NCBI GenBank assembly: GCA_030704615.1
Contig: CM060732.1
Coordinates: 78,616,001-78,680,000, forward strand
Source: Takakia lepidozioides
Taxonomy: Eukaryota > Plantae > Bryophyta
Length of the DNA stretch: 64,000 bases
Direction: 5' to 3'
This document shows positions 973 through 53,016 of this stretch, piece by piece. The position numbers and the translations under genes are program-made. Under the pieces are notes generated by a model that worked only from the letters and a program-made list of their open reading frames with translations, was not told the origin of the DNA and ran no database searches. Position 1 is the first letter of the stretch, and each line of letters begins with the position of its first letter.

Positions 973-973
<1 letters not shown>

Positions 974-1030
<57 letters not shown>
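974..1030. repeat. (TC)n microsatellite abutting the LINE insertion site
   Basis: Uninterrupted CT/TC dinucleotide run of about 57 bp. A shorter run lies at about 4422-4451. Confidence 0.95.
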
Positions 1031-1032
<2 letters not shown>

Positions 1033-1041
1033 GACGAGTCC

Positions 1042-3648: not shown

Positions 3649-3869
3649 TCTCATGACGAGTCCAGAGTACTTGACAAGCTGTGACCGTCTACAAGTTAGC
3701 CAGACGTCGGTGCACAACGTGACAAAAATTTCTCCACGGCAAACTCAACCAGACACTCCAAAGCCCATCAGAAGAAGGCCTGCAGGCATTTCTCTACTCC
3801 CATGATCCTGCCCCACGGAGTTGCAGACTCCTTTCTGAGCGTAATGGATTGTCCAAAATGGCAGATATT

Positions 3870-8200: not shown

Positions 8201-11200
8201 CTCAATCGCTAGTCTTGTAGTGAGGATTTACGTCAACTGTTACTTCTTACCATGGGTAACTAAAGTTGTTGTTATTCAGTGGATTAAGTTGCAATCCATG
8301 AACCAAGCCTTTGAGAGTATAGGCTGAACCTCTGTAATCTCTGCTGAGAGAAAATAATTGAGTATTTAGCTTATGTAAGCGTCTGATACATGATGCTTTT
8401 GAATCTGTGTGGAGCGTCCACTAAGGAAGACAGGTTGTCCTTACCTGCATCAGGCAGAATTCTGGTATGTTCTTGCTTTTTGCTTCTTACTTTGGCGGAG
8501 CAGAAATTGGGGAGCAGGGGAAGAGGGTCAAGAAGAGAGTAGGATAGTGTTCACCACCACCACTGAAGGCTCGCTCCAACCTTTGGAACCGAACCCTTAA
8601 TTTTCCCCAGGATGCTGACTCAAGGAGGAACATCGCTTTTTGCTTTGTCTCTACTCTTTCCAACTTTCAGATTGTACTCATAAGACGTTGTTTGCCGTAG
8701 CCTTGTGGCCATTGACCCCGCGCCCAGTTTGAGCGGGAACAAAAGGGACAGAACCTACCTCTGTCAGGGGCTGACGTTGGTAGTAAGACTTACCTTCATA
8801 TATAGAATTAATCCGGGTTTTCCAGATATCCTCTAGAAATCCCTTCACACAAGCATCAATCTGCTGTGTGTGACTTGCCCAAAAACTAGGCCTCAGGAGG
8901 GCCTGGGCTTTTGGCTCAGCCCCGAGACTTTCAAAGTTGGTAAACAGGGGTACAGGCACAATTCCCTTGATAGATTTGAAGAGAGCATCTCTTTGGTGAG
9001 AGAACCCCGGACAGTGTATCAGAAAATGAATACTGTCTTAAGATTGCCCACACAACGGGCAATTGCACTCTCCCTTTCCTCTCTGCTTCTGTTTGCTGTT
9101 CAAAGGTAGGCTTCCTGCCCTGAGTTTAAATTTCAGTCTAGTGCCGAGAGTGGGTAGACCCTTGAGGTCATCCAAGATGTCCTCCCCCATGTCACTGACT
9201 GGAAACAAGTTCAGGGAAGTCTTCTGCCTAACTTCATTTTCATCAGACAATCTCATGGCAACAGACATGGCTTTGGACACTACAACCTCTAAGTCAGATT
9301 ATCCAGCAGGGTCAAGACTTGCGGATCCAGGTCCAGGTCCTTGAGAATCTCTTCTACTCTCTTCTGCCAGGACTTAGCCTGTTTGACAGGGCGGTCCTGT
9401 TTCCAAGATATAGAGTCGATTAACTTAGGATATCTGGTGTTGGGCATATGTTGCAGCTGACGCCACCATCTGACCTTGAATTCATCTCGTCGGGAGCTTA
9501 AGGACGGAATGCCAAACTCACCCCGAACAGCCACATTGGCTGTTTTGGAGCATGCTGACATACACTCCTTAAGCACCCCCACTTGAATGGATTCTAGAGA
9601 CTTAGCCTGGTTGGAGTTATCAACCCATATTGCAGATCCGTACTCCAAGGCAGGTCTAATAACGCGACAAAGCATGGTTTTCTTAACCTCAGAGTTGACC
9701 CCTCTGCAGTGGAAAAATTTAGTGACCCCCAGAGCTTTGCCCTTGCCAGTTTGAACAACTTTCCAGACATGTGCATCCCAATTACAATTGGAGGAAAACT
9801 CAACGCCCAGGTAAGTGTAGGAAGGGAGGACCGGGATCTCTTGGCTACCCCACTGCCACTTAAGATCACTTCCTCCCTCCCCTCTGTCATTGAATGCTAC
9901 CACTGCACATTTGCTGACATTAGCCTCTAGCCCCCAAAGATCAAAGTATCTCTTCGCGCAATCAATCAACTCCTGGAGATTGGTTGGAGTCTCCCCTATG
10001 CCTGCGAAGTCATCCGCAAACATAAGGGCTGGTATGGTGGTATCACCCACCCTTAACCCAAATCCCTCACTTTCCACATCCTCGAGGAGTTGATTGATGA
10101 AAACATTGAAGAGCAGAGGGGAGAGAGTACGTCCTTGAGCTACACCTTGGTCTATGTCAAAGAAGTTGGACTTCTGTCCGTTAACAGTGACACAGCTTTT
10201 GGTGTGAGCATACAAGTTGTGGACAACTCTCCACATCTTTCCCTTGATCCCACAAGACCAGAGGCGGAACCATAGGCCATCTCTCCACACTGTGTCATAA
10301 GCCTTTTTGACATCCAGGAAAAAAACATAAGTGGGTTTCCCTTCTTTCCAACTTTCAGAAAAGAGGTCCAAGGGTAGTCCGCTTGATCCTCAGAGCGCAG
10401 CACACAGAAGGATAGCTACACATCAGAGAGATATATCTTTCCTTGTAGTTTTGAATTTTTGCACGTCTGATTCACATGAAAGCCAAAAGGGCCAACTTTT
10501 CCATTTTGGCAATTTCATGAAGGGTGAGAGAGTTTTTGATTCAGATTGCAGGTGGTACAGGCATTACACCAATGCTGCAGTTGATTGATACCATTTTGTC
10601 CAATCCTGACGATAACACACAGGTGATGCTAGTCCAATTTATCTGTCATTCCATCTGGTCATCGATGATTGATTGGATACTAAAGAGGGAAAATACGGAA
10701 ATTATTACATCGAAGAGAGTCAGAGGAGGGAGGTGGGAAAAGACAAGCAGGGAGGCAGAAGATCATGTTGCACAACTACTTTTATGAAATTTTCTGGTAC
10801 AAAATGGGTGATAAGGTGCAGCTGGTCAAGTCAGAGAGCTCGATAGGGTTAACTTTGTCATGGTGTTGCTTTTCAGATCTCACTTGTGTATGTGAATGTG
10901 ACACCAGAGGACATCCTACTAAAAGAGAAACTCGATCTTCTGGCCCAGGCCCACCCTAACTTCAAGGTATGTGAGCTTTCTTGCTTACTGTGTCTAAATG
11001 GCCACAAGGCTACCAAAGTAGACTGAAATTATTTTCTTACGTCCATGTCTCTGCAGGTATATTATGTGGTGGACAAGCCAACAGAGAAGTGGAAGGGTGG
11101 AGCAGGGTTCATCAACAAGGCCACAATTGTGAAGGCCTTACCATCTCCTGACGGCGACACTATTATGCTGGTATATTAAATTCCCAATCTTCTTAGTGCA

Positions 11201-13851: not shown

Positions 13852-14741
13852 TGTATGTGAAATTTCCGTTTTTTTCTTTTCCTGTTTTGTTTTTCGTTTT
13901 GATATCGCCAATGATTCTCCAAACTCAAAATATATCACATTTAAGAGAATTTCGCCAACGAACTCACACTAGCAGGAGTATGCTCACTCCAGCCAACCAA
14001 AATACTCCATAGATTTCAAAACATATTTTGAGAATATTATACAGTGAAACGAAAATATTCTCACATGACCAAAAATAGTTCAAATTTGTGCTCACCTTGC
14101 ACAACGAGTATCTCTAGCGAAACTATCTTTTTGAGTTTTGGTTTGTTTTGTTTTATTTGGATTTTTTGGGTTTCTTCCACCAACGAAACCCACCTAAACT
14201 AAATATACCTTAGTATCCTTGCATTTTTGTTGAAGTACCTTTTGTCTGTCTTTACTTGTATTTCCGTTTGCGAGCGTGGAAAGAGAGCATATGCTTAGAA
14301 TCGATTGTGAGCGGGTATTATCACGTGAGCAAAGTTGTCAGTAGTTTTTTCCTATTTTTTTTCAAATATTTTGGCGATCTTGGGATTTCATTTTGCTGCA
14401 GTGTATCGTAGGAATTTTTGGTGAATATTTGGACTACGGTATTCCTCTCGCTCATGTGATCAGGATCACGTGTATACCTATTTGAAGAGTCAGTAACACA
14501 TAATCTCATTGCTCACTCGGAACCCCCATCGCCCCCAGTTTGTTCAATTCAGACGACTGACGTTGTTGTCTGTACGGTTCTTCCAATCGTTGGGATTGAC
14601 TCAAAGACTCAAGGTCATGTTGTTAGTTTGCAATGTCATGTTCATAGAGGCTATGTTGGTTTATTAGCTGCTAAGGCATGGGTCTTTAGCAAGGAGAGCG
14701 AGCGTTCGCCTAGTTATCTGGATAGTTGTGATCTTGAGACA

Positions 14742-14906
14742 ACCACCATGTAGCCCAATGGTAATGGGCACATACCACATTGGATGTGGTTGTGGGTTCA
14801 AACCACGCTCTGGTGTGTCATGAAGGTGTCCACCTTTCAGTTGGAAGGCAGTAGCCCTTGTGGTGAAGAGACACCATAAGTTACGCTTCCTTCGGGAGGC
14901 ATCATA
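14742..14906 (+). mobile_element. tRNA-derived SINE, older copy
   Basis: Pol III A-box TAGCCCAATGG and B-box GGTTCAAACC. About 90% similar to the reverse complement of 28036-28201. Confidence 0.7.
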
Positions 14907-16164
14907 CTTTTGTGATTCTGATCCGTTATAACTTTGATAATTTTTATGACCCCGGTCCTTACTATCTCGATCCTAGGCAATAAGAGCACGAGTTTGAGAG
15001 AGATGTCGTGAGGTCCCAGGAATTCGATCACTCCCTATATGAGCTGTTTTCTAAGGATCGTTTTTCGTTTGCTAAGATCAAGGAGGCCTTTAATCTTTGA
15101 TGCTCGTTGTTTTACGTATTACCATGAGTCGGTGCTTGCTCGTCCAAATTCTGACCCTGTGGAAATAGCTAGCTTTTACATATTGACATTTGGGATTGGC
15201 CCAAATGTCAATCTAGGGGTCAAGGCAGATTTAGGCCCTGGAGTGGTTATCTTCACAACAAGCGCGGGAGGCTCATCTTTCTCGAGTTGAGCCTCACCGC
15301 GCCTAGCTATGGCGTCGTAGTGTGGATTCCCCATGGCGTGGAGTGCACTTGGCTTGACTTGTATTTGAGTGATGAGTTTATATATGCATGAGTTTATGCT
15401 TTAGCTTTGTGAGCTCGCATGAGCTTGTGCTTGTATTCTTCTACTTTATCACTCGAGAAAGATGAGCTCGTATCTGTGAGTGCCAGATACGAGTTAGTTG
15501 TAGCATTTGTGGTTTTTGCTTGAGAATGAGAGAAACCAGGTTTTTATGCAAGGAGCACCGTGGAGCTCTTGGTTGTTAGAAGCGGAAGCAATGTGGGTTA
15601 CGAGGTGGTAGACCTTGGCATTCAATCTTCAGCTTCAAAGATGAAGGCACCAATGCTGCAGGTAATTCCAGAGCACCTTGATGGTTTCAAATTGTGTACA
15701 TGCATGAGCAAGCACGATTGGGAAGAGGACCAGTCAAGAGCAGGTTATAGTGGCTTTGGTGGCAAAGCTGAGAAATGGACTTGGGAATGCGAGCTTTCAT
15801 TGTGTGAAGGATTGCAAGACCAAGCGAAAGGGCTGATTTGGCTTGGGGCAAATCAGTGCACTTTGTGGAGTATGTTGAGATTGGGTTTCAATCTCGAGCT
15901 TCAGCATTGAGAGGGCTCTTGTCATGGCAAGAGCAGGGCTGGAACATGAGCTAAGAGGTGCGACAAGGCCATGGAATCTACACCTAGGGTTTCAGAGCTT
16001 GGAAGAAGAGCTCTTGCACCACAAGAGGAGTGTCTTGTGGCTGGAAATGTAAGCCTTAGGGTTTCAGGAGCTTGGCAAAGGCTGTGGAGTGCTTAGTCTT
16101 GTCTTAGAGAGCATCAAGGAGCCAAGGAGCCAAGATAGGGAGCTGATACCTCTTGTGTGAAGAG

Positions 16165-16620
16165 GTTGCATGTGTGGAGCATGTATTCAGCTCATTGAAG
16201 CTTCCATCTTCAAGCTTGGAGGGCAAGCAAGGAAGAGGGAAGGGCTGACTTCCCTTATGTGAGGGCAATGCATGTGTGGAGCATGTTTTCAGCCTGTTGA
16301 AGGCTTGTACTTTCAGGTTTGGGAGTGCAAGAAAGGAAGGAAGGGGCTGGTTTCCCTGTAGGGCATGTGTGGAGCATGCTTCCAGCCCGCTGAAGCTTGT
16401 ATTTTCAAGTTGGTGGGTGCAAGAAAAGAAGCAAAGGGGCTGATTCTCTTGTGGTGAGAGTGGGGCATGTGTGGAGCATGCCTTCAGTCCATTGGGCTTT
16501 TGTTTTCAAGCTTTAGATAACTAGAAGAGAAGGTAAGGGGCTGATCTGCTCTTATGTGACAGTCCGACACTTGTAGAGCGTGTTCTTAGTTGGGGTTTCA
16601 ACCTCAAGCCTAGATAGAGC
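16165..16620 (+). repeat. About 95-105-bp diverged tandem repeats in the element 1 leader
   Basis: GCATGTGTGGAGCATG...TTCAAG...AAGGGGCTG recurs 4-5 times. Confidence 0.75.
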
Positions 16621-16995
16621 ATGGCTCTTGAAGTGGCAGATGTAGGGGGCTGGAATAGGCTCTAAAACGGATGCTATGGCCAAGGAAAACGCTTGAATGA
16701 GTGCTCACAAGGGCTGGAAACCAGCAAGGCTTGGTTGTTTGCCATTGAGTTTGGTGGCGTGTTTGGGGAGTCTAAGTGAGAAAGAAGGCTTGGTTTGTGG
16801 CAACCATCTTCCTCATGGCTTAGGGCTACTATTGGTGGTGTGTGGGAGCCAAAAGAGCAAGAATACCTTACTGATTTCTTCACAGCCGCCATAGCTCGGT
16901 GCAAAGAAGCCTAGAGTCCAAGAGACACAAACCCTAGCGTGGCATGGCTAAACCCCTTGGAGAAATGGCTAAACTGCCATGAGTGGTCATGGATA

Positions 16996-17640
16996 GGCTG
17001 TGAGGGGCTGTGACAGGTTGTGCCCTGTGGCCTGTGGGGCTGTGGCGGGCTGTGACAGGCTGTTCCCTGTGCCCTGTGACCCCTGCGACCTGTGATAGGC
17101 TGTGGCTGTGACCCCTGTGACCTGTGTAGGGCTGTGACAGGCTGTGCCCTATGGCCTGTGGGGCTGTGACGGGCTGTGACAGGTTGTGGCCTTTGGGGCT
17201 GTGACCCCTCTGACCTGTGTAGGGCTGTGACGGGCTGTGACAGGCTGTGGCCTTTGGGGCTGTGATCCCTGTGACCTGTGTAGGGCTGTGACAGGCTGTG
17301 CCCTATGGCCTGTGGGGCTGTGAGGGGCTGTGAGGGGCCATGGTGGGCTGTGACAGGCTGTGGCCTGTGGCCTGTGGGGCTGTGACGGGCTGTGACAGGC
17401 TGTTCCCTGTGGCCTGTGGGGCTGGGATGGGCTGTGAGGGGCTATGACAGGCTATGCCCTGTGCCCTGTGACCCCTCTGACCTGTGACAGGCTATGGCCT
17501 TTGGGGCTGTGACCCCTGTGACAGGCTGTGACCTGTGGCTTTTGGGGCTGTGACGGGCTGTGACGGGCTGTGGCCTGTGTGGGGCTGTGACGGCTGTGAC
17601 CAGTGATCTGTGTGGGCCTGTGCTGGTCTGTGGTGGCCCG
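16996..17640 (+). repeat. GGGCTGTGAC/GGCCTGTG short-unit tandem array in the element 1 leader
   Basis: Dozens of 7-10-nt CTGTG-core units with higher-order repeats; strongly G/T-biased strand. Confidence 0.9.
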
Positions 17641-18346
17641 TGTTGATCTGTGGATGGCCTGTGCTGACTCGTGGAGGCACTGGTGGACTGCCTAAAGACT
17701 GACATGTCTTGAAGGCCAAATTTTGAAGCTCGTGGAGGGCGGTTTGAGGAGTATCTTCATGATATTTCCATGGTCATGCAAGTGAGGGAAGAGAGGAGAA
17801 AAAGAGTGTTGGGATGAGGGCATGCTGGGGTTAGGCATTGCTTTAGCTTCTCTTCCTCGTAGTTTTCATTAGGCCAAGACCTTTCCGTAAGTGGAGGCAA
17901 GAGTCAGTTCGGGTTTGGGCTGGGGTATCCTTGCAGGAGCAACACCGTGGAGTTGTTTTTGGTATGGGGGAGTTGTCATTCTGATTTCTTGTGTTTGGAT
18001 CCCCTCCATACCTGCATGCTTGACTGTGCGCCATGTTAGTTTGGTGTGGGCGCTTGTTTTTATAGGTGATTGGTCCGGATTTGATCACCGGCCACTCCTA
18101 GAGCATGCTGTCGATGGTGAGGCTGGGGTGATGACCAGTTAGACCATCATTGTTTCTCCTGTGGTGAGGTTGGAGGTGATGACCAGCCAACCATAGGAGT
18201 GCTTGCGGTGGATGCAGGTGTAGGCTATGTTAGGAACCTAGTATTCCAAACCATAAGCCGCAACAAGTTCTCTACCCAGTTACCTTGTAGAGAGGGGGTT
18301 AGGGACATGTTCATGACCGGTTGAGTGACAGTTTGTCAACACGGAG

Positions 18347-19620
18347 GTGCCACTAGTTGCTGGGGACAGTCATGGTTTGAGCACTAGCGATACTAGTGGG
18401 TACACGAGACGAGGTGTGCGGTTTAGGCCACCTTCACCTCCCGTGTCTTCTACGGAAGGTTCTGATTCGGATTGTGAATCAGGATGACTCACACCGGCGG
18501 TGCAAGTTGTTTCTTTGTCATTGTTGTGGGACACAATGGAGGAGATCTATGGAGCTACCAAGGGGCCACGAAGGTACTTTGGGGCAGTGGGCACCATCGA
18601 GTTGGATGATTTTATCCAAGAGTTTGATAGTTGGTGTGATTTGCAGCAAATGCGCAATCCACAACTATTTACGTCTTTCATGGCATGGAAGGGGCTGTTT
18701 CAGCACCTTGAGGGGCCGCCTATGGATGATTACCATGAGTTCAGGCGGGGGCATGAGGTTGAGATCGAGGAGTGGAGGATGTACTGGTCACCCGACTATG
18801 TCTCCATCACTAGGGGCACTAGAGCCACGAGGGCAGTGACTACACCTGCCGCTGCACCGGCAGCTTCAGCAAGCAGCAGTGGGACTAGTGGGACTGGTGA
18901 TACCGTAGCTACGACATCCACCCAAGCTACTGCTGCACCAACACCAGTGGCGGTGCCTGCCTTCAACCCTGTTGTGGAGTTCTTCGAAGAGTTACGAGGG
19001 AACTACCAAGGAATGAGGACAGATAAGTTGCGAAGCTTGCAAGAGTTCCAACAGAAGCCGACTGAGAGCTTGAGGGAGGCTTTCACTCACATGAGGCGCT
19101 TGATAAATGCAACCCAAGGGGTTACGGAAGCTCAAGCAGTCCAATTCTGGTATGGGATATTGTACAAAGAGCTGAGGAGAAGGGTGCGGGATGCAACTCT
19201 CCTACAAGCGGCCCAACCCACCTTAACAAATGTGTTTCTGCTGGCAGAGCGGATAGAGCTCAACATGGTGGAGGATCGAGTGGTCATGGTGGAATTTGCT
19301 AAGGAGACACCACGGGGTAGTGGTGCTCCTAGCCAACCACTACCTCAACGTGCTCAAGGCAACAAGGGGGCTCAGGTGAAGCTCGGGGAAGGGCAAAGAT
19401 GACCTCAGATGCAGGGGTCTCTCCCTTCATTTGCAGGCCAACAACGGGCGGATGTGGTGTGTTGGACATGTGGAGGACCCCACGTCAAGAAGGATTGTCC
19501 AGAGGGAGGCAAAGGGCCGGCACATGCACAGCCTGCACAGTTGCAGTGTGGGCATTGTGGCAAGCACGGGCATGGAGCATAGGCAGCAGCTAGAGCATAG
19601 GCTCGCTGCCATGGCTACAG
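18347..19620 (+). pseudogene. Gag with CCHC zinc knuckles (element 1)
   Basis: ORF 18500-19402 (FEELRGNY..LQEFQQKPTESLREAF) continues in frame past TGA to CWTCGGPHVKKDC and a truncated CGHCGKHGH. Homologous to 45901-47200. Confidence 0.8.
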
Positions 19621-20279
19621 CTCAGGTGGTACCGGCTCCAAGGCCGGATGGTCCACCTCCTGCTCCTGAGGGAGGAGATATGGGAGGCATGGGATTCATG
19701 TGCGGAGCAGCACTACCACTAGTGCAGGTGGAGTCTGCTGCAGCCGTGACTCGAGGAGCAGTACGAGTTCCTGAGCCACGAGGTGCAGAGGTGGAGTTGG
19801 ATCCACAGCGTGGGGAGGCAAGCCGTCAGGCTAGGCTCCCTCAGTCATTCACATTGGCGGAGATAGTGTCGACGCCATCCATGGCACCTAGTTCTCGCCC
19901 GATTGTTACCGAGGCGGAGGTTACTATGCCATTGGGGAGAGCTACACGGGTAGCACCACTACCTAGTGTTGTCAAGGCTATGGCAGCTAGTGTGCTGCTG
20001 GGAGAGGCCACATCTGTGTGTCAGGCTCCATTGTTCTCGGCTACCATGATTGCGACGCCGGGGGTAAGACCAGCTGAGGTGTTCAGGCTGGCAGCTACAC
20101 TCTGTGATAGTGGGGAGGTTACTTCATCTTCTGCGGAGATAGTGGGAGGTGTAGTGCCGGAGGGATCCTCGGATTTGAAGGTCAAGACTGCCACGGCGGC
20201 GCCATGGCAAGCTGCAGCTGCCAGGTTGATGGAGCTGCCAACTAGGCCAGTCATTGAGCGCACCATGGTGACACCTAGA

Positions 20280-20700
20280 GTTGTCATGTTAGACAACCAG
20301 GATAACATTTTCTGTTTGAGTGGCCCGGCAGGCAAGAAGTATCGGGCACTGCGGGTCTTGTTGGACTCGGGAGCTCAGCCATTGATGCTGGGTAGAGTTG
20401 CTATTGCAGGCTTGGGCCTCACGGAGGCGAATATGGAGCCTTGTCCTTTCCAGATACAGACATCTCTGGGAGGATCGGAGCAGGCTCGGGGCATGACACG
20501 GCGTGAGTTGGCTATCAGACTACGGCCGGATCACCCTATAGATGGCTCAGTGATGCGAGCCAAGGCCATTGTGACAGACGCGGTCTCATACGATGTCCTG
20601 GTTGGTGAGGCAGTGTTGTACCCCATGGGCTTCACCCTGGATTTTTGGGAGGAGTCAGCTTCCTATAGGCCTGGATGGCAGTCAGGGGAGGGCCGGCGTG
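20280..20700 (+). pseudogene. Retropepsin aspartic protease (element 1)
   Basis: VLLDSGAQ (Asp codon 20364) and YDVLVG in ORF 19431-21062. Confidence 0.8.
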
Positions 20701-21077
20701 TGCAGCTCTCTATGATATTCATAGGAGGAGTTGCGATTGCCCAGCGAGGCAAGATGCTGACACTAGCAGCATTCATAGCTGCAGTGAGTTGGCCTGGAGA
20801 GTTGCTTGAGGGCAACGCTCATTACGAGGATATGTCACCTCCGGGAGAGCAGGATGACATGCATGGTATGGCGGAGTTGCCTGCCATGATTGCTCAGACT
20901 CCATTGTGGGGCACGAGCAAGGATTTGCAGCAGGTTGCTGATCGACGGGTGCAACAAGCCTGGGTAGAGGCTTTTGTATCATCAAGAGAGGAGGAGAGTG
21001 CGGGGATTGCACCAAGACCACCTCAGTTGTCTCCATTGGACACCACACCTATTGTGTGGTAGTATCCAGATGAAGGC

Positions 21078-22030
21078 ATTTGTCTTCTGGACTTGTTTGG
21101 CGGGATCAGCACCGGATTGGCTGATGTGTTATAGGCAGGTGTATGAGTTCGGCGTTACCTGTATGTGGAGAGGGATGAGACTGCACGACACGTTTCACTT
21201 CGCCATGTTGCTAAGTTGCAGCAGTACCCTGAGTTGTTGCCAGTGTCTGCAGTTCATGGATATCAGCAGGCCTTGCCAGCAGACATTTCGTTGCTGGGGG
21301 CGAAGGATTTGGAGCGGGTTGGCTCCATTGATCTTGTAGTGGCAGGTTGGCCCTGCCAAGGGCATTCATCAGCCGGGCATGACAATGGATTGCGAGACTT
21401 GAGGTCGGGTCTATTTTGGGAGATGGTGCGGGTTTTGCGCCACTTGCAACTTCATCAAGCTGTATCTCCAGCATACATCTTGGAGAATGTGTCACTGATG
21501 GGCGATTCTCGGGCCAGGGTGATGGCCAGTGCGCATCAAGTCCGGTTGTGGCTTGGGTCAGCAGTGTTGCTAGATGCAGCTACAGTGGGGTTTCGGGCTC
21601 ATCGTCCACGGCTATGGTGGACTAACTTGATGCCATCCGCACTGCTCAAGCGTGCATTTGATGGGGTGCAACGGCCAGCACACCTCACAGTGGATAGCAT
21701 TTTGGACACAGGGAGGCAGTCTCAACGTGTGAGACATGATGACCGTTCGCCTTTGGCAGTGGTCAACAAGGTGGGTCAACCACGAGCAGCATTACCTACA
21801 CTGCTCAGCTTCCCAGGATCGCATGCTTTCCGGGATAGTGGACCTGGCCTCCTGTGGGATGCTCAGTTGCAGCAGTTAGTGGAGCCTAATGCTGACAAGC
21901 GTGAGCGGGCAATGGGTTTTACCACTGGTACCACGGCGGTGCCGTCTCTTTCTGAGGCATCACGTCGTCAGGTGTTGGGGCAAGCAATGGATCTCAATTG
22001 CTTGACCTGGATTATCAGCTTGGCTATGGC
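21078..22030 (+). pseudogene. DNMT3-like C5 cytosine DNA methyltransferase domain within the retrotransposon polyprotein
   Basis: Ordered motifs: I LDLFGGISTG (21087), II YVERD, III ADI, IV DLVVAGWPCQGHS (catalytic PC at 21351-21356), VI ILENV (21483), VIII AHRPRLWWTNL, IX RERAMGF, X RRQVLGQAM. Same frame as the upstream protease and downstream RT ORFs, interrupted only by in-frame stops at 21060, 21132, 21144 and 22308. Confidence 0.9.
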
Positions 22031-22429
22031 TGAGCAATGCAGAGTGCGGAGTACACTTTCCTCGATGGTCTCTCTGCCTACCGAGACGGTACAGGCAGTG
22101 AGTGGGGGCGAGCATGTGAGGACCACGGGGTGCAGGCATCCATGGCACACGTGGGAGGTGCTCGAGGTTCAAAGGGAGTTGGCAGCCAGGGCGGCGGTGA
22201 TGGATGAGGTTGGGGATTTTTCTCGGGTTGAGGATGAGATGATGGGGCAGGATGAGGCCTTGTCATTGACTGAGCAAGCAGGGAGTACTGCTCAAGAGGT
22301 TGCAACATAGCAACCACTGGACGCGTCCTCTACCTCTAAGCCCACTGGACTTAAGGTTGCAGTTACGGAGGACAATTGGGAGCCTGACATTGGACCCATT
22401 GTCGCCGGAGGAGAGAGACGACGTATACG

Positions 22430-23780
22430 GCGGTTCCTAAGGGCTTACAGGAACTGCTTTGCCTTCAGCTTGAAGGACTTGGGAGCATTGAAGGGTCAAG
22501 AGATTTGTATTGAGTTGGCCACTGACACGCCAATCTTTCGGAGACCCTATAGATACAGTGACATGGAGAGGTCTTTGATTCAGATGAGGACTCAAGATCT
22601 CTGGGAGGCTGGTTTGGTGGAGCTATCTGGTGGAGAGTATGCTTCAGCCACAGTGATGCCAGCCAAGAAGGATGTCTATGGCAATTGGACGGAGAGACGT
22701 ATGTGCGGTGATTACTGGCTTGTAAATCGTCAGACTAAGTCCGATAAGTATGCCATGCCAACACCGGAAGAGATCTTTATTGCCATTGGGCATGCTAAGG
22801 TCTTTAGCACTTTGGATTTACGATCCGGATATCACCAGTTGCCGATCAAGGAGGCGGACAAGCAGAAGACGGCATTCTGGGGGATCAATGAGCACGGCAA
22901 GGATTGCCTATATCAGTGGCGATTCTTACCATTTGGGCTTAAGAACGCTCCTGCAGAGTTTCAGAGAGTCATGGATAGGATTCTAGCAGGAGTGGACTTT
23001 GCTCGGTGCTAGATAGATGACATCATCATCTTTAGTGCTACGGTGGAGGAGCATGAGAGACACCTTCAGGTGGTATTGGAGCGCTTGAGAGCGCACGGAT
23101 TGAAGTTGCATCCGGGGAAGTGCAAGTTTTTCCACAACCAGATTGTCACATGATATATCCTGGAGGATTGGGGGTATAGCAGACTAAGGTAGAGGCCATT
23201 GCACAAATTCCACGCCCCACGGATGTGAACCGAGTTCGAGCTTTTATGGGATTGGCAAACTATTATAGACGGTTTGTCAAGGGATTTAGTGCCATTGCAA
23301 AGGCTCTAACCAAGCTGACCAAGGTGGACTAGGAGTGGTAGTGGGAAGATGAGCAGGAACGAGCTTTTCAAGAGCTCAAGGCGAGGTTGACCTCGGCGCC
23401 TATCCTGAGACGACCTATCAGGGGGCATCCCTTTCAGCTGCATACGGATTGGAGCATGCTGGGGCTTGGAGCGGTGCTCACACAGGTGGATGATGAGGGA
23501 AGAGAGTTCGTAGTGGCTTATGCTAGCCGCTTGAACAACGCTGCAACTAAGTACAGCTCATATGAGGGAGAGTGCTTAGCTGCAGTGTGGGTCGTGGCAC
23601 ACTTCAGGTGCTATCTATAGGGCAATATCTTCACCCTTGTCACGGATCACCAGCCACTCAAGTGGTTGATGGAGTCAGACAAGCTTACGGGGAAGCTTGC
23701 ACGGTGGGCACTCATACTCTAGGAGTATGTCTTTCAGGTTGTGCATCGACCGGGTTTGGTCAATCGGGATGCGGATGGAT
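22430..23780 (+). pseudogene. Ty3/gypsy reverse transcriptase and RNase H (element 1)
   Basis: [35 protein letters not shown] (YIDD mutated at 23010), LHTDWS, SYEGECLA, TDHQPL. Confidence 0.9.
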
Positions 23781-24149
23781 TGAGTCGCAATCCATGCACG
23801 AGCCAACAGGATGACACTGGGGCTCGGTGGCATGGTGAGACGGACAAGGAGATGGTGTTGGGATGGCACGCATCTCCATTTTTGTGTATCTTGGCATCGG
23901 GAAGTCAGGTTGGACCTACAACATGAATGACTATAGACGGAGTGTCTGAGGACCCTGAGGCTAGTGATGAGCCAAGTGGTGCCAGAGATATACATGACGA
24001 TTCAGCTGTGTTGGACTACCTCCACACGGGAGACACGGCAGCCACTGTGACTGCCAGGGAGAGGGATCGGATCCTGCAACGAGCCAAGAGGTTCAAGTGG
24101 GAGGGGATACACCTGCTCCGAGTATGGGAGGATGGTCGGGTGAGGATTG

Positions 24150-25020
24150 TGCCTTACCCCGCACAGCGTGCACGGTTAGTGCGGCATGTCCATGAGGAGT
24201 TGGGGCATTTTGGAGTGCGACGCACTCACAGTTTACTGCAGGGGCAGTATTGGTGGCGTGGTATGCATACAGAGGTGCAACAGTTCGTGGCTAGGTGCAT
24301 GGTGTGTGACAGGGTGCGTGCTTCATTCAACACTCCTACACCACAGTTGCATCCTTTACCAATCATGGGATTGGGCTATAGGTGGAGTCTTGACTTCGCA
24401 GGACCGTTGCCACTGACTATGCGCCACCACAGATATGTGTTGGTGATGGTGGAGCACTTCTCCAATGGATTGAGTTGGTTCCATTGCCTGACAAGGCTAG
24501 TGAGGGGGCTGCGTATGCATTCTTGGATCGTGTGCTTAGCCTATTCGGTGCTCCAGCTGAGGTACTCACGGACCAAGGGAGAGAGTTCTTGGGGGAGTTT
24601 CAGGCTTTGTGTGATAAAGCCTTGATAGGCCACCACATCACTTCTCGGGATCATCCTGAGGCCGATGGTTTGGCAGAGAGAGTTGTTCAGACGGTGAAGA
24701 GGGGTTTGCGCAAGTACGGCTTGCAGAAGGGACACCTAGGAGATAGGGATCTTCAGGTACCTTGGTTAGCGTGATACATTGAGGTATGCCACTATACGTG
24801 GTAGAGGATATCGTCCTGGGGTTCGGAGGTTTAGCCCTGGTGACTATGTTTATTTGCAGCAGACTGCTCCTACGACCCTGGATGTCACTGCAGGGCGTGT
24901 TATTCTGAGGGTTCGAGAGGTGTTGCCCTCAGGAGTCCTGATCTTGGAGGGTCGGGATGGCATGACTTGGAAAGACCATGTGCGTAATTGTGCGCCATGT
25001 CACCTTCCCAATGTCGATGG
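24150..25020 (+). pseudogene. DDE integrase (element 1)
   Basis: HHCC (HEELGH..CMVC), SLDFAGP, TDQGREF, DGLAER. There is an internal deletion near 24772 relative to element 2. Confidence 0.88.
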
Positions 25021-25061
25021 CATAGTTGACCCAAACTTGGTAGTGGTACCTGCAGGTTTGA

Positions 25062-25206
25062 GGCGCATGCTCTGTGGGTCTGCCAAAGGGGCAGCCACCA
25101 TGCTGGTGTGTGATTGATGCTCAAGAGCTTGGCATATGGGATGCTTGACACCACCTCTTGAGAGGGTTCTTGATGGAGATTGGTTATGTCCACACTGCTT
25201 GGGATA
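25062..25206 (+). pseudogene. C-terminal PHD finger (C4HC3) of element 1 polyprotein
   Basis: (R)[43 protein letters not shown]. The counterpart at 49464-49603 retains the first Cys. Confidence 0.85.
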
Positions 25207-27329
25207 GTGGTAGTAGACATGACTAGAGGCAGCTAACAAGACATGGGAGGCCAAGCTCATAGGAGTCAATACACGAGATCCCAGGCTCAAGTTCACAGGT
25301 TGCAAGAGGGCGACTAACGATGGGGCAACTCTTGCACCCGACCTCTTGATCTATCGAGTTTGAGTGTAGTAGGGACAGTGGTGGAGGATTTAATGAGGCT
25401 ATGGTCACTATCACATCTTGTGGCTACCCGGACTTAGAGGGACCTAAGCACCAGCTAGGGGGGCGATTGTGTGGACTAGTGACTGTCATAGTGGGCAGTA
25501 TAGTGGCAGCCTAATGACTGACTAGTTGTAGCCTAGTGGTTGGACTAGTGGTGGACTAGTGGGATATTAGTGTGTGGTGTGCACATGTGTTGTGTGGTTT
25601 TGGACAACGATGTAGTTGTGTAGCGATATGTATGCGCACGACAGCTATCAAGTTATTTTACCACTAGTGTGAAACTAGCTAGGAAATAGCTAGCTTTTAT
25701 ATATTGACATTTGGGATTGGCCCAAGTGTCAATCTAGGGGTCAAGGCAGATTTAGGCCCTGGAGTGGTTATCTTCACAGCAAGTGCGGGAGGCTCATCTT
25801 TCTCGAGTTGAGCCTCACTGCGCCTAGCTATGGCGCCGTAGTGTGGATTCCCCATGGCGTGGGGTGCACTTGGCTTGACTTGTATTTGAGTGATGAGTTT
25901 ATATATGCATGAGTTTATGCTTCAGCTTTGTGAGCTCGCATGAGCTTGTGCTTGTATTCTTCTTCTTTATCATTGTATGGACTAGTGTCATAGTGGGCAG
26001 CATAGTGGCAGCCTAGTGACTGACTAGTTGTAGCCTAGTGGTTGGACTAGTGGTGGACTAGTGGGATACTAGTGTGTGGTGTGCACATGTGTTTGTGTGG
26101 TTTTGGACAGCGATGTAGTTGTGTAGCGATATGTATGCGCACGACAGCTTCATTGCGGCTACCCTTTGATGTCCTTAAGACTCATTTTCTACACTATTGT
26201 CCATTATCATGGCAATAGCTATGTCTAAATTTCCACCCATGAGCAAGAGGCATGTTGTTTCCGACTTGGTAGAGGACGTTTGGTTCTCACTTGTGCTCAG
26301 AGGCACAGGTGTTTTGATTTTGATAGTGCTTCGCTTTCATCAGAGGTTGTATCACAAGTATCGTGTGATACCACATCTTCTCATCTACTTTACGGTCTTT
26401 TGAGTGACGGCCTTGTTGGACAATCCTAGGATGTTGTGATTTTGTTAGGTCCTCACTTTGAAGCCCAATTGTCAGTTATGACATGACGTAGTGCAAACAA
26501 GCCAGTGTCACGTCACAACGCGCGTCACGTCATGTCCAAAACCGACTTTACGTCCAGTATTTGTTTTTAATCTTTTTACGTTTATACGACCCAATTTATA
26601 TCATTGTCGAGGGTACATGACATTTTTTCTTTTGTTTTCTTATTTTCTTGAAAATGTAGAAAAAATGGTTAGATGGTCTTATAACGAGCAGACGACCGCC
26701 GACTAATAGCTAAGCGACATGCGGGCTGTCGGGGGACGATGGACCGCTAGACGAGCGCATGGTAGCTATCCCGTGACGGGCGACCACCAAGTCCTTTGAA
26801 ATTACTAAATTCATTGAAATTAAATGAGTTCTCATGTTTTGTAATACAGAGGAACGTGGACACTTAAGTATCAAGGGTCCCCCTCCCCCCCCCCCCCCCC
26901 CACAAGAAATTACATTACCGAAACCTAAAACCAACGTGACGCGGGCCGTGGCAGCGTCACATCTGACACGACCTGACGCCACTGATGCAGATAAGGGGGC
27001 TTTGACAATCACCGGATGAATCGTTTGCGTGTGTTTGAAGCTCCTAACAGTCTTCCCGACCTTTTTGTGCTCTCATGAACGAGGGAAGAAAGATACACCA
27101 CGTGAGTTGCTTTTTGGGTCAAGACCCGAAAGGCATGAGAATGATTGACACTTATGGTCTATGATTCGAATTCTCATGAGGTCTTGAAAGTCATATCGTG
27201 TTCAGTTTAGTCTTGGGAGCCTGTCCGTAGGATCTGATTGTTCAAGGAATGTACTCGTGGAATGTGTCTTGCTACTTAGAGGTGTCACTACAGATTTAGT
27301 TGAATGCTTTACTAAAACGTTTCCATTGT

Positions 27330-28012: not shown

Positions 28013-28201
28013 ATATATATATATATATATATATATATGACGCCTCCCGAATGAAGCGTAACTTATGGAGTCACTTCACCCCGAAGGGCTACTGCCTTCC
28101 GCTAGGAAGGTGGACACCTTCATGACACACCAGACCGTGGTTTGAACCCACAACCACATCCAATGTGGTATGCGCCCATTACCACTGGGCTACATGTTGG
28201 T
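28013..28201 (-). mobile_element. tRNA-derived SINE with (TA)n tail, younger copy
   Basis: Minus strand reads ACCAACATG-TAGCCCAGTGG (A box)...GGTTCAAACC (B box)...GGGAGGCGTCA-(TA)n. Exact 15-bp TSD TGTCTCTGTTACATT at 27998-28012 and 28202-28216. Confidence 0.85.
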
Positions 28202-30249
28202 TGTCTCTGTTACATTCTTTCCTGGTAATCTACACTGTTTCAGATCTTGTTGATTTGTCAATCAGCTTCCTTGATGAGTTGCAAGATGCTCAACACATGA
28301 TATCCATAAAGAGAATATTGGTAAGGCTCAGCTCACACAAGCCCGCAACTTTCCCAAACGTATTAAGTATTCTAACATTTTTTAGGTGGGACAGATGGTT
28401 TGTCTACAATTACAGCTCGGTAAGCATGTATGCAAGTCCAAACTAAAGATCAATGGACCCTATTTGTTGCATCAATTATTACGTGGGTAGTGTGCTTTGC
28501 TTTTATCACATGGGGCCAATGTCAAGACACACGACTGTCCACCTGACTGATATGGTTTATTCTGAGCTGATGTTTGATTTAACTTGCAGCATCAAACATG
28601 GAGGGACGCACCGTGGGGTGACTTTTGTAGTTCTGAGTTGTTTTGTTCCAATAGGGTTCCTACTTCATATTCTGAATCTCCAGCTTTGTTTTTGGAATTC
28701 AGTCTTACTTTTGAGCTGTGGTTTTTCTAGATCTTTCGGGAGTATTGGTAGTGTAGGATGTCCACTACCTGTACTTCCTGCAAAGGCTTTCATGTCCAAG
28801 GGTTTTGTCCCTGGCCCACTTTGCAGGTGCAAGGTTTTTCTTTGGAAGATTTTTAATCTTATAGTGGAAGGTGTTCATCTAGTGGGTTTTATTACTTTAC
28901 ATCACCTCGCAGAGCTCAGGTCTCCCTTAGGATCTCCTTGCCTAGTAATTACCTTATTAATCCTCCCTGACGTGACTTCATATCTTGTATTTTGACGGCT
29001 CCATATCGTTATACGCCCTGTAGCATTATGAGCCATACAAGATAACGGCCCTAAGGTGTTGGCTGCATCCTAACCCTTCAGATAAGCCATGTCGTGGACA
29101 TTTGGTTCATTGACCTTGCGGCTACCATTCACGCCGAGACAAGTGGCAGGACGGCTAACCCATGGTGTGCTGTATAAGTTCCTGATAAACCTAAGGTTGT
29201 TGGTTCTTTTACGGATGTTCAACCTAGTGTAAACTCCTGGTGTATAAGGTGTTGGATGTGCGTGTGTCATGGTGAAGGCATGACATTTGTTCTGAGTCAA
29301 CAAGTTCCTTCATGCATATGATCCTCTTATTCGCAGATAAGCCTACTATTCATGTCTAAACCCCCTAGGGCATCACGGAAAAGATGATGCGGCTTTCCTT
29401 CGAGCCCGAAACATGGTCTTCATACCCCCACCTTCTTTATATAGTGTATCAAGCTGGTGACGGTGTAGTGTTTTTGAAGAGGGGCCCACTGCCTCATTCC
29501 TATTCCTCTTGAAAGCTTTAGAACTAGAAAGAGGGCACTACTACAGATTGTCGTTTTTATGACTACGGGTGATATAAACCTTGGTAACCATGACTACATA
29601 TGTGACTACAATGTGATGAAACCCATTGTTGGGCGCATTTTAATATATTTTAATCTAATGAAGTCATACATATTACTACATGACTAGGAGCTACGGTCAA
29701 ACATTGTTGACAAATAACACAGGCTTGGTTTATATAACTAGTAGTCATACGCACTACTACATGTCAAACACGTGTCATATAAGCGTATGATTAAATGACT
29801 ACACCATTACTACACATTGATGACATGCCATAGAAGCTTGTGACTACATGACTACATGAGGTTTCACAGCTATGTTTATATGACTACATCACTACACGTG
29901 GGCATCTTAAGGCATATACATGAATGGGTTCATCTATTGGATGACCTCATCCATCTAAGCACTTGCGTCAATGGAATGACACAAAGTGCAAAGGTTAATT
30001 TTTTTTTAAAGTTGCTTTAAGGTTGCCCACGTTCAGTCATGAACACATAGGGCTGGGACTTAGCCTCTTTTGTCTCCCACGCTACCATTTGTTTTCTTAG
30101 TATCGAGCCCTAGCAGTAAGAACTTGTGTCATGGAACGCGACGATCGCAGGATATGCAATGCAGGGGCGTGGGATTGAGGCTTTGCGACGTATTCTTGAG
30201 CAACTCATGCAGCTTTCTTGAGCTTATTCTTGAGCAAATGATGCAGGAA

Positions 30250-31172
30250 GGGCGAGGATATGCACAACGGGGGCATGGTATAGAGGCTTCGGAGACGTAT
30301 GAGCAAATAATGCGGGAAGGGGTGAAGCCAAACCGGATCACGTTCGTGTGTGTGTTTGCAATACGTGTGCGAGCCTGGCACCCCTGGAGAAGGGTAAAAG
30401 GTCCATGGTGCCATTGTCAAATTTGAAATTGTACCCAATGTCATTTTGAACAATACCCTCGCACGTGGGCATGTATGCCAAATGTGACAGTATTGAGATA
30501 CAAAGGGAGTGTTTGAGAATATGGCTGAACGAAATGTCGTGTCCCGGAGTGTGATGATGGCGGGATATTCTCCAACATGGATGCGGGATGGAGGCATTGG
30601 AGACCTATGAGCAAATGATGCGATGATGCGGGAAGGGGTAAAGCCAGACCTGGTCACATAGACCTGGCCACGTTCGTTTGTATATGCAACGCGTGTGCGA
30701 GCCTGGCAGCCCTGGAAAAGGGCAAAGAGGTTCATGGTGACATCATCAGAGCTGGAATTGTACCCGACGTCATTATGAACAATACCCTCGTGGACATGTA
30801 TGCGAAATGTGGGTGCATCGCGGATGCGAAGGGAGTTTGCAACTATGGCTGAACGATGCTTGCGGGGTATGCACAGCAAGGCCGCGGGAAGGAGGCTTTG
30901 GAGACCTATGATCAAATGATGGCGGAAGGGGTGATCAAGGCTGGCAGCTGGAAAAGGGCAAAGAGGTCCATGGTGACATTGTCAGAGCTGGAATTGTACA
31001 CGATGTCATTCTGAATAGTACTCTCGTGGACATGTACAAAATGTGGGTGCATCAAGGATGCAAAGGGAGTGTTCAAAAGTATGGTTGAACGAGATGTGGT
31101 GTCGTGGAGTGCGATGATTGCAGGATATGCACAGCAAGGGCGCAAGATGGAGGCTTTGGAGACCTATGAGCA
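30250..31172 (+). pseudogene. PLS-class pentatricopeptide repeat gene fragment (about 3 motif triplets)
   Basis: GHGIEASETYEQIMREGVKPNRITFVCV, NTLVDMYAKCG and ERDVVSWSAMIAGYAQQG recur at about 300-bp spacing; frameshifted. Confidence 0.85.
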
Positions 31173-31828
31173 CCTTCCTCAACACATTTCAGCCTGTTTT
31201 CCCTGTTATCAGAGTCGCCCCTAAATTTTCAGGTTGAATTCTGCAAGTTATGGGTGCCTGCAATTGTACTCTTCCCCCTTCTTTACACCCGCATTTCTGT
31301 ATTCATAGCCACAACAGATGGATGTCATCAAGTCATGGTAAAGGGCTTCTTAGAGAAAGAAATGCTAGAATGCACCAGGGTTAAATTTCATTCTTGGGAT
31401 TCGTGGCCCCTTCCACTATGGTAGTGGGCCTCTTTGTTTCTGCTGCTGTCCCATCTTTTAGTCTTTTCTGCTCTTTCAAAAATGGGTACATGCATTAACT
31501 TGGCTTGAAGACTACTGGGGCAAGCAATGTCTAAATATCATTTTTTTTCTTTCTCTATCCCTGGATATAATAAGTGTCTTCCTTGTTCTTTTACTGAGTT
31601 TGTATAAAGACACATAGAAACAGACAGTGATAGAAATTGGCAACTACTCCCTCTAGTTTCGTCTGCAAGGTTTGCGGTTTACAGGTTGTGCTGAACTCCA
31701 TTGAAGTTTCAGTTACTTTGAGGGTGAAGGAGTGTAACCGTATCATACATGCAAGACTTCAAGAGTGGATAAAGTTACACACATCCTAGCCCCCCTCACA
31801 CTGTAACCAGAAGATGGTGAGGTTGCAG

Positions 31829-34040: not shown

Positions 34041-34367
34041 TGTATGTTCCATGTGTCATTGACATTAAGGGTTCCGTTATGTTTCCATCCTAGGTTGTCT
34101 CCCTCTGTGTTCCAACTTCAATTTGAATGTGTTTCTGAGCAGTTCAGTTGCTGGTTGCCGGTTGAGATGTTCTACTCAGTCTTGCAATTGAGTTTGGATG
34201 TTCTGGTCTGCTTGCTCATATGTAGAGGATAAGTAGAGAGGGGAAGTCCAAAAAGCTTCTTTCTGACCCCAGTCAATGGTGGGACAATAGAGGCAAAAAG
34301 GTGAATGTCTGTTGGATTACAGAGAGTAGCATATGCTATTAAGCATAGGAACTAGTGTGATAAGTAG

Positions 34368-40300: not shown

Positions 40301-41355
40301 AAAGCGGCATCATGAGCGGTCGCAAGCAATGTTGTGGCAGTAAGGCGATTCGATCCTCAAGGAGGATCGTTCCTTGGCCTTGAAGTAGGCCAAGAAGAGT
40401 GCACTGGGAGGAGCTTGAGAGGCTCCACCCTTGGCCGGGACTTGGAGGAAGTCGGCCGAACTAGCTAGTGGAGAGTAGAGTCAAGTGTGGGGTTTGGTTC
40501 TTTGCCATGGGACGCCATGGTACGGAAACAAACTCCTTGATGTGGGACGCCACAACTTGGATGTTCGTTTCTACAAAACGACAAGTCGATGAGGACATCT
40601 ACTCCCTGTTGGTAGGGGTGTGTGTCGCGGCCCTTTGCCTTAAGGGCAGGGGGTCGGGACACATGAGGGGCTGCCCCTGTGGTGGGGGCAGCGGCAGCGA
40701 TAGGTATGGGGGGCTGAAGCACCCTTGAGTGCCCAAGGCACTCAAGGAGGAGGAGGCACTCACTAGGTGGAGGGTGGAGCCCCGCACACCGGGTTGCGGT
40801 GGGGGTGGCTCCACAAGGGGTGGTGGTAGCTTAGCGGGACTTAGTGGGGGTGGCATAGGACTCACCATGGGGTGGAGACCTCGAGGTGGGAGTCGTGGGG
40901 AGTCTTGGGACTCATCACGGTCCATTGGGGCCGCGGTGAGTGGGCCAAAACTCACCGCGACTCACCACCGGGAATCGAGGGTCTTCGTGGTGGTTCGCCA
41001 TAAAATGGCATGGCTGGTTGTGAAACCCCCGCGGACAGCTACAGAAGTATATATAGGGAGTAGTAACCCCGAGAACGGTGCAAGCCCGTTGGTGACCAAA
41101 AACTAGTGAGTAAGTGAGCGAGCCGGAAAGCGACCAAAGAGTGGGGAGCTGTTCCGGACTGCCAACTACCAAAGGGAATTCCCGCTGGTTCCAAATCGGT
41201 GGAGGGTTCTTTGGGAGAACAAAGGGGGACCGTTATGCCCCGGTGAGTAGCCGAAGCTCCAAGTTGGCCTGGCGGCCAGGTTGGGAGTCAGGCGCGCGCA
41301 TCAAAGCGAGTCACTATGACTTGAAGGGGAGCTTACTGAAGTGAGGTGCGCGACA
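34368..41355 (+). mobile_element. Full-length Ty3/gypsy chromovirus (Galadriel/Tcn1-like) nested in the CACTA element
   Basis: 733-bp near-identical LTRs at 34368-35100 and 40623-41355. 5-bp TSD AGTAG (34363-34367, 41356-41360). tRNA-iMet PBS TGGTATCAGAGC at 35103. PPT GGTAGGGGTG before the 3' LTR. Confidence 0.95.
35156..39717 (+). pseudogene. Chromovirus gag-pol (gag, CCHC, PR, RT, RNase H, INT, chromodomain)
   Basis: CFNCGEPGHMAKKC, LVDTGA, YIDD, TDASD, HHCC, SMDF, SDRD, DGQTER, GPF, EYEVEAIL..YLVKWKGY..SW. One in-frame TAG (36821-36823) and one frameshift (about 38090). Confidence 0.93.
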
Positions 41356-41487
41356 AGTAGGGTTGGGGTGTTTGCTGAAACAATTCTAGGCTGTCATTAT
41401 CAGCTGCTGGCAGCAAGGCAAGGATGTATTCATGATTTGTGCAGAGGTATGGATAGCTGAAGGAGCAGGGATAGAGTGTGGGTCCAG

Positions 41488-52815: not shown

Positions 52816-53016
52816 TCTCCAGCTTGTCTGACACATTGTAAGACTTATCACTTGGATTCGGCCATCACACCCGTCTTGCTTTGCTTGAATCGATTATACA
52901 CACACTTCTCCTGCTCTTGAATCTCTGCCTGCATTTCGGACCTCGCATTCCGACAAAAAACTGTCAGTGGTAGACTACACCGATCACGTGAATTGTTTGT
53001 GTGGAGAGTACTTGCA

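Follow-up and report, generated by a model that had tools for sequence, protein, structure and literature searches.

Cytosine methyltransferases have been found within several kinds of retrotransposon, and here we describe a further example, a Ty3/gypsy element of the land plant Takakia lepidozioides. It lies at 15161–26146 of a window of 64,000 nucleotides (nt), the whole stretch of DNA that we analyzed (assembly GCA_030704615.1, contig CM060732.1, positions 78,616,001 to 78,680,000, forward strand). SymbioDIRS-Dnmt3 and SymbioLINE-Dnmt (PMC5890265) and the EpiLTRs (bioRxiv 10.64898/2026.05.21.726589) also carry such an enzyme, but as characterized in those reports they belong to other retroelement orders or have DNMT4-related domains. 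The EpiLTRs further share the possession of a chromatin reader, but theirs is a chromodomain, together with an adenine methyltransferase, while the present family has a PHD finger. The closest described system is KnitGypsy-Dnmt3 of Klebsormidium nitens (PMC5890265). Its published description matches our element in the Ty3/gypsy domain set and streptophyte host, in a non-permuted DNMT3-type domain (theirs intronless, with Ka/Ks < 0.2), and in DIRS-like split repeats arranged as A1, open reading frames (ORFs), B, A2, B. The same 2018 paper already proposed that such elements methylate their own complementary DNA (cDNA), and the 2026 EpiLTR preprint cites 'streptophytes (Gypsy-DNMT3)'.

The Takakia element, now dead, belongs to a high-copy family of land-plant Ty3/gypsy retrotransposons whose terminal repeats are split. 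A DNMT3-like methyltransferase (MTase) follows the protease, and is separated from the reverse transcriptase (RT) by a conserved stop codon. The explanation that accounts best for the whole, to which we give a probability of about 0.55, is that of a split-repeat element in which a leaky UAG would allow near-capsid packaging of the MTase, which would likely methylate the element's own cDNA.

The methyltransferase lies between protease and reverse transcriptase

The coding parts of the element are as follows.

18536–19573, plus strand: gag capsid (PF03732) and CCHC zinc knuckles, with one stop at 19400
19584–21059, plus strand: Gag–protease linker, aspartic protease (DSG at 20364) and protease–MTase spacer
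21060–22046, plus strand: DNMT3-like C5 cytosine MTase, motifs I–X, with stops at 21060, 21132 and 21144
22308–22316, plus strand: in-frame TAG followed by CAA CCA, the UAG-CAR-YYA context of tobacco mosaic virus (TMV) type; predicted programmed readthrough
22311–23830, plus strand: RT and RNase H, broken
23990–25060, plus strand: integrase with H2C2 zinc finger, core and C-terminal part; a frameshift and a deletion of ~225 nt
25070–25207, plus strand: C-terminal PHD finger (PF00628, E 2e-10) and the stop of ORF2

The gag frame possibly starts ~150–200 nt upstream of 18536, and recognizable RT sequence begins at ~22371. With stops read as X, the regions flanking the MTase match the Pfam families Retrotrans_gag, RVT_1, RT_RNaseH, Integrase_H2C2 and PHD, with rve below the cut-off; the Pfam match for the protease comes from an intact relative, L036. 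The order Gag–protease–RT–RNase H–integrase is that of Ty3/gypsy elements.

Translation of 19380–23147 places the protease, the MTase motif set and the RT in one frame interrupted by five stops. It bears out an original prediction, made from the sequence of this stretch, that a complete and ordered set of C5-MTase motifs lies between protease and RT. The prediction had also placed three ORFs in a single frame. This holds for protease, MTase and RT, but the supposed start at 19431 is spurious and gag lies in another frame: ~180 nt have been deleted at 19573/19584, whereby the gag frame shifts into that of protease and MTase. Beside the TAG at 22308 there are 12 premature stops in this copy, of which three fall in the N-terminus of the MTase and one in the catalytic motif of the RT. 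It is also broken at ~23145, ~24463 and ~24770.

The MTase motifs run in the order LDLFGG (21087), AGWPCQ, ILENV, AHRPRLWW, RERAMGF and RRQVLG, up to ~22000, so that motifs I, II, IV (with its Cys), VI (ENV), VIII, IX and X are all present and non-permuted. The domain matches PF00145 significantly (E 9e-13, 48.8 bits against a cut-off of 22, stops read as X), which was one of the checks that the original prediction had named. The closest PDB sequences are DNMT3A, then DNMT3B/3C, then DRM2 and HhaI. An AlphaFold model built with an 80-row alignment has pLDDT 96 and pTM 0.94, and a Foldseek search with it returns DNMT3A/B at the top (E 6e-19, TM 0.69/0.80). By these rankings of sequence and predicted fold the MTase is nearer to DNMT3A/B than to DRM2, DNMT1/CMT or bacterial enzymes; the predicted gypsy identity and DNMT3-type domain are both supported by the Pfam, PDB sequence and Foldseek matches. 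Rows from elements with the stop all retain the motif IV Cys and the motif VI Glu (59/59), and so do those from the type B elements described below (106/106). The target-recognition region is family-specific. We consider that the MTase is probably active on DNA.

A conserved stop codon in a readthrough context

The original prediction took the whole to be one polyprotein, with the MTase inside pol. This does not stand: the conserved TAG at 22308 parts a Gag–protease–MTase ORF1 from the RT. In a census of this position, 61 of 80 metagenome loci together with the focal copy had both an MTase end and an RT start, and removal of 11 near-duplicates left 51 loci. The first in-frame stop before the RT is followed by CARYYN in 44 of these (31 TAG, 13 TAA), while as a control the same arrangement occurs at 4/368 decay stops of coding domains. 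Two of the other seven loci have a TAG with a second stop at the place of CAR; five are disrupted or have no stop, one of them with a Tyr codon. The strict form CAR-YYA is found in 7/51 (the focal copy, L008, L079, L036, L039, L057 and L020), and additionally in L082. The linkers ahead of the stop have lengths of 76, 87, 90, ~107 and ~110 codons, and look unrelated between lineages.

The arrangement is best seen in intact relatives. In L036 an ORF1 of 1359 amino acids encodes Gag, protease and MTase and ends at TAG CAG TTA, followed in frame by an ORF2 of 1047 codons encoding RT, RNase H, integrase and PHD finger. L082 is arranged in the same way, with TAG CAA TCA. In both of these ORF2 has no Met until codon 117, which lies beyond conserved RT sequence, and neither the –1 nor the +1 frame is open in the vicinity, so that re-initiation or frameshifting is disfavoured. 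The proteins agree: 29 of the 42 homologs with the MTase in the position of the focal element (type A, below) are without RT, and most of these end 54–178 amino acids past the MTase, members of one lineage ending at corresponding places. UAG-CAR-YYA is the tested readthrough motif of TMV in the account of PMC3159437. On the evidence of sequence, it is very probable that programmed readthrough of TMV type at the UAG links ORF1 to ORF2. Conservation of an RNA structure 3′ of the stop was unsupported among seven sequences, with z from –2.75 to –0.05 and differing folds.

L082 was the one locus found by the search of genome contigs. It is an intact-looking, plant-type element within a bacterial assembly, on a circularly collapsed contig of a cyanobacterial genome, and is likely a contamination.

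A second programmed stop was considered in gag. The focal copy (19400–19402) and a sibling element in the same window (~46935) share a TGA codon immediately ahead of the zinc knuckles. We favour decay instead, since intact relatives read through the position and CpG decay is frequent, 22/38 informative CG sites having decayed in one copy. The TGA is probably a product of such decay.

How widespread is the family?

Homolog searches gave 170 short relatives (120 listed) and 104 long relatives. The sources named among the matches listed include Marchantia polymorpha, M. paleacea, Riccia, Calypogeia, three Sphagnum species and Closterium; no vascular plant is named among them, and neither is Klebsormidium. 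The long homologs fall into two arrangements. In type A (42/104), which includes sequences from Marchantia polymorpha, Calypogeia fissa, Sphagnum fallax and Closterium, the MTase comes after Gag and protease and/or before the RT. In type B (60/104) it lies between RNase H and integrase; two could not be placed. One type B source is named, the chlorophyte Hariotina reticulata (P0197/P0252 cluster). The type B sister lineage of ~60 unnamed proteins is large and often intact, with the same DNMT3-like domain and PHD finger, and some members have a G-patch. A profile search gave 482 clusters (50% identity; E up to 1e-30). Among the relatives, P0220 (1053 amino acids) has a PHD finger preceding the MTase and a precomputed PF12237 match, and is without RT; it may be a different element or a domesticated gene.

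Trees of the MTase (60 of 264 rows) and of the RT (41 of 115 rows), made by a quick method with neither a host DNMT outgroup nor K. nitens, both keep the two arrangements apart, and group the focal copy with liverwort and moss sequences. They are compatible both with one capture followed by relocation and with two captures. No sister element lacking the MTase, by which the stop might be dated relative to it, was found among viral contigs, which gave one distant MTase (L081) and nothing for the RT alignment.

In the source species, sequencing run X1 contains 77,955 contigs along the whole element, MTase included, and the family is of very high copy number in that genome. The 40 of 932 variant places listed for its copies include neither the 22308 stop nor other, plainly private stops. 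The MTase sits at the same position in many copies and species, rather than being the one-off capture that the original prediction had held to be its refutation. Nor does it evolve neutrally. Between the two best-preserved relatives, L036 and L039, the ratio of nonsynonymous to synonymous substitution rates (dN/dS) in the MTase is 0.124 (316 codons, dS 0.26). That of the protease is equal at 0.126, and the MTase ratio is about twice that of the RT. As judged from these codon comparisons, the MTase is under purifying selection in the family. In Marchantia polymorpha there are several full-length ORF1s in which every motif is present (P0125, P0255, P0262 and P0263), annotated there as 'hypothetical proteins' (Mp4g09160, MpVg00370, Mp5g06330 and Mp5g06860).

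Split repeats, integration and priming

The non-coding features of the element, and its sibling, are these.

15161–15451, plus strand: repeat A1, left end; 97% identical to 25682–25972, without the first ~36 nt of A2
15271–15287, plus strand: predicted self-primer of 17 nt within A1; its exact reverse complement lies at 15451–15467, with 0/2000 shuffles giving one as long
15451–15467, plus strand: primer-binding position, immediately 3′ of A1; pairs with the A of the element itself, and has no tRNA-type TGG start
16167–17632, plus strand: two tandem-repeat tracts (~100-nt units; CTGTG-rich units) in a long leader
25455–25465, plus strand: polypurine tract immediately ahead of B1; the motif recurs in 15 loci and in the sibling, and also in L036, L057 and L082
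25466–25643, plus strand: repeat B1, ending ACA
25641–25648, plus strand: B1/A2 junction, ACA-GC-T(A)T
25646–25972, plus strand: repeat A2, complete
25972–26146, plus strand: repeat B2, right end, ending ACA
43218–50449, plus strand: sibling element, ~81% identical, its repeats likewise split, flanked by a perfect target duplication of 4 bp (CATT)

The layout is A-ORFs-B-A-B, instead of two complete direct long terminal repeats (LTRs) around the ORFs, and locus L027 and the sibling have the same split arrangement. The focal copy shows no target duplication because its left terminus is truncated. All three copies that retain both A1 and B2 have 4-bp duplications: CATT/CATT in the sibling, AAGG/AAGG in L066 and AACA/AATA in L027. 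These are as expected of a DDE integrase. Recombinase families gave no match in the intact L036, where an H2C2 and rve integrase and a protease are present instead.

Since A begins TGT and B ends ACA, the B/A junction is palindromic, and reads ACAGCTGT in the sibling, L001, L032, L066, L057 and L082. The pairing between A and the primer-binding position persists despite changed letters in the sibling (13 nt), L066 (17), L036 (16) and L082 (13), and amounts to 5–12 nt in the decayed Sphagnum-like copies. We think self-priming similar to that of Tf1 quite probable. Priming of the minus strand after A, and of the plus strand before B, would produce a linear cDNA of the form BA-internal-BA. A two-LTR circle made from it and opened at the internal palindrome ACAGCTGT would give the genomic form A-internal-B-A-B; integration from a circle opened in this way is a tentative proposal, about which we are somewhat doubtful. 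In ten Sphagnum-like loci the polypurine tract is not followed by a B/A junction.

Two copies consist of A-ORFs-B alone and also have 4-bp target duplications, in L034 (3012–11651, TACA/TACA) and L020 (2265–12055, one mismatch). They were considered as support for a one-LTR circle, but this was dropped, as recombination between B repeats or assembly collapse gives the same form.

A single internal deletion in the sibling has removed the protease, the MTase, the RT and most of the RNase H, and its A repeats are 99% identical. It was possibly mobilised in trans.

A PHD finger in place of a chromodomain

Pfam scans of the focal element and of L036 found no chromodomain, and there is a PHD finger instead. 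Its nearest solved domains are those of CHD4, PHF12, PHF21A, KAT6A, KDM5A/B PHD1 and UHRF1. Two residues ahead of the His ligand, 76/83 sequences have Gly and none has Trp, so the cage Trp is lacking. PHD domains of the CHD4, PHF21A, KDM5-PHD1 and UHRF1 type read unmodified H3 tails, and the ADD domain of animal DNMT3 prefers these too. The balance lies modestly in favour of a PHD finger that binds unmodified H3 tails and so steers integration.

What is the methyltransferase used for?

In the mechanism that we propose most ribosomes would stop at the UAG and make Gag–protease–MTase, while a minority would read through it to add RT, RNase H, integrase and PHD finger. Since the MTase ends ORF1 ahead of a conserved stop of readthrough type, it would be made at levels like those of Gag, not at the level of the RT. 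The stoichiometry of viral readthrough provides the analogy by which particles would hold many MTase molecules per RT, and it is likely that the MTase is released by the protease and packaged. The simplest selected use would be for it to methylate the element's own cDNA ahead of integration. We put at even odds that the cDNA is the selected substrate, with new insertions arriving already bearing the transposon mark of the host. The ratio of observed to expected CpG is 0.28–0.70 in the family and 0.89 in a neighbouring chromovirus, values that cannot separate self-methylation from methylation by the host. The most extended version is a bryophyte lineage of still-coding split-repeat Gypsy elements with leaky stop, capsid-level DNMT3, self-priming, a circle opened at its palindrome and pre-methylated arrival by way of the PHD finger. 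It would form a mobile copy of the DNMT3 module of writer and H3K4me0 reader, perhaps writing part of the host methylome, and we think it rather unlikely to hold in all its parts.

A number of observations weigh against the preferred explanation. About 40 of the 51 loci in the stop census belong to one Sphagnum-like family, with CAA CCC in place of strict CARYYA, so that only 4–5 independent lineages are represented. In the type A protein P0172 of Closterium, and in P0158, P0162 and P0272, MTase and RT share one open frame, and in type B the MTase lies within the RT frame. Because such elements fuse MTase and RT, an MTase at capsid level is not needed across the wider clade, and because Closterium and some type A elements have no stop at this place, the stop marks one sub-lineage. 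In decayed Sphagnum-like copies the MTase has dN/dS 0.53–0.58, like their other domains, and dS between the focal copy and its relatives is near saturation. The target-recognition segment gave no sequence alignment with DNMT3A. The Gypsy DNMT of Klebsormidium gave no methylation in yeast, a result that its authors deem inconclusive, and human DNMT3B was likewise inactive in that assay (PMC5890265). Lastly, the TAG can also be read as a splice acceptor.

In that alternative the linker between MTase and RT would contain a small intron, with the TAG as its 3′ splice site, and Pol would be translated from spliced RNA. Ogre elements make their Pol in this manner, the TAG does end in AG, and predicted gene models skip the linker and join MTase to RT (P0128, P0130 and P0133 of Marchantia; P0157 of Sphagnum). 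Yet these models skip differing stretches, and splicing leaves unexplained both the conservation of CAR-YYN past the stop and an ORF1 that is open exactly up to the TAG and, with linkers of five lengths, always in the frame of ORF2. Moreover, one contig of X12, another run of the source species which we guess to be RNA, spans from the end of the MTase to the integrase and is colinear across the 22308 site. We regard splicing as quite unlikely. That the MTase is a one-off capture or neutral passenger in the focal copy is scarcely credible. There are three stops in the focal MTase, and the sibling is without it, but the deletion in the sibling took protease and RT as well, the same position is occupied across liverworts, mosses and an alga, dN/dS is ~0.12, and the trees of MTase and RT split into the same groups.

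The remaining alternatives accept that the enzyme is kept by selection and differ on its substrate. It might act in trans or as a brake, methylating its own promoter, sister copies or wider host DNA, and so limit transposition or reshape the methylome; the brake was raised by de Mendoza 2018 (PMC5890265). Output at the level of Gag is beyond the apparent need of one cDNA of ~10 kb, and the several full-length ORF1s with all motifs in Marchantia would suit such a role. Against it, the family has reached very high copy number in the source genome, and the non-CG reprogramming of Marchantia sperm has been attributed to MpDNMT3b and MpCMTa (bioRxiv 2021.02.12.428880), and we judge a role in trans or as a brake to be unlikely. 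Also quite unlikely, in our estimate, is that the MTase is kept for something other than DNA methylation, such as methylating or binding RNA or an intermediate of split-repeat replication. The inactivity of the Klebsormidium domain on yeast DNA, the family-specific target-recognition region and the co-occurrence of the MTase with an unusual repeat layout are compatible with such a role, but all the catalytic motifs and the fold match the DNA-acting DNMT3A/B, and a DNMT3 borne by a DIRS element methylated CG in yeast (PMC5890265). We prefer a packaged MTase that would act on the cDNA of the element.

Other features of the window

Inverted repeats of 171 nt (91% identical) at 14736–14906 and 28036–28207 flank the focal element, and may mark an older DNA transposon around it. 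A young Ty3/gypsy element of chromovirus type at 34259–42159 has gag–protease, RT, RNase H, integrase and a chromodomain between 732-nt repeats that are 99% identical. At 36821 an in-frame TAG parts its protease from its RT, and its right end carries additional short repeats. Two copies of a long interspersed nuclear element with RT (916–3651 and 8669–10389) are 98% identical, inverted and 5 kb apart, and RT–RNase H fragments of another Ty3/gypsy element lie on the minus strand at 62340–63664. There is a decayed fragment of a pentatricopeptide repeat gene at 30139–31250, with tandem motifs interrupted near 31250. Three Gly/Thr-rich ORFs within 52921–59441 have no Pfam match, and one has two short homologs; their lysine segments we take to be like those of dehydrins and late embryogenesis abundant proteins.

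Comparison with known systems

This family bears on the purpose of retrotransposons that carry the kind of enzyme used to silence them. It adds a regulatory feature, a conserved stop of readthrough type that would set the MTase at Gag levels and keep the RT low. The 2018 hypothesis that the cDNA is self-methylated can now be tested in a land plant, because Marchantia polymorpha has both full-length ORF1s and methylation mutants. There are also practical consequences: counts of DNMTs in bryophyte genomes may include transposon copies, LTR finders may miss such elements, and gene predictors may mis-splice them. The original prediction knew of no described land-plant family. With most subscription papers, Repbase and some supplements lying outside the coverage, we found no account of a land-plant Gypsy-DNMT3 family, of the chlorophyte form or of the stop.

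The stop has its counterparts in viruses. As described for tobamovirus type I readthrough (PMC3159437) and for gag-pol of murine leukaemia virus, an in-frame UAG with a 3′ CAR-YYA context separates the structural and polymerase frames. Here by contrast the stop comes after protease and MTase, not after gag, and the largest subfamily has CAA CCC. Tf1/sushi and Tcn1, as set out in PMC6317226, likewise have a primer site complementary to their own repeat and not to a tRNA, but our family differs in its PHD finger, lack of a chromodomain and split repeats. The focal RT is only ~36% identical to that of the chromovirus in the same window. DIRS, PAT and Ngaro elements have a tyrosine recombinase with no DDE integrase and no protease, and the focal family is the reverse. 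Gypsy-7a_cRei of Chlamydomonas (bioRxiv 2022.06.16.496473) is another green-lineage Gypsy with a PHD finger in its polyprotein, but there is no methyltransferase among the domains listed for it and by its description it has an ordinary pair of LTRs.

KnitGypsy-Dnmt3 remains the nearest in kind. Compared by description, the present family differs in its land-plant host and very high copy number. According to PMC5890265, KnitGypsy-Dnmt3 has its DNMT, RT and RNase H together in one ORF, whereas here a conserved stop intervenes within the same frame. A PHD finger is absent from the main text of that paper and readthrough from its supplements, and self-priming goes unmentioned in these parts. Retrotransposons with such an enzyme had been described from dinoflagellates and one charophyte alga; the Gypsy-DNMT3 kind, known from K. 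nitens, is extended by this family to the land plants and to a chlorophyte sister lineage.

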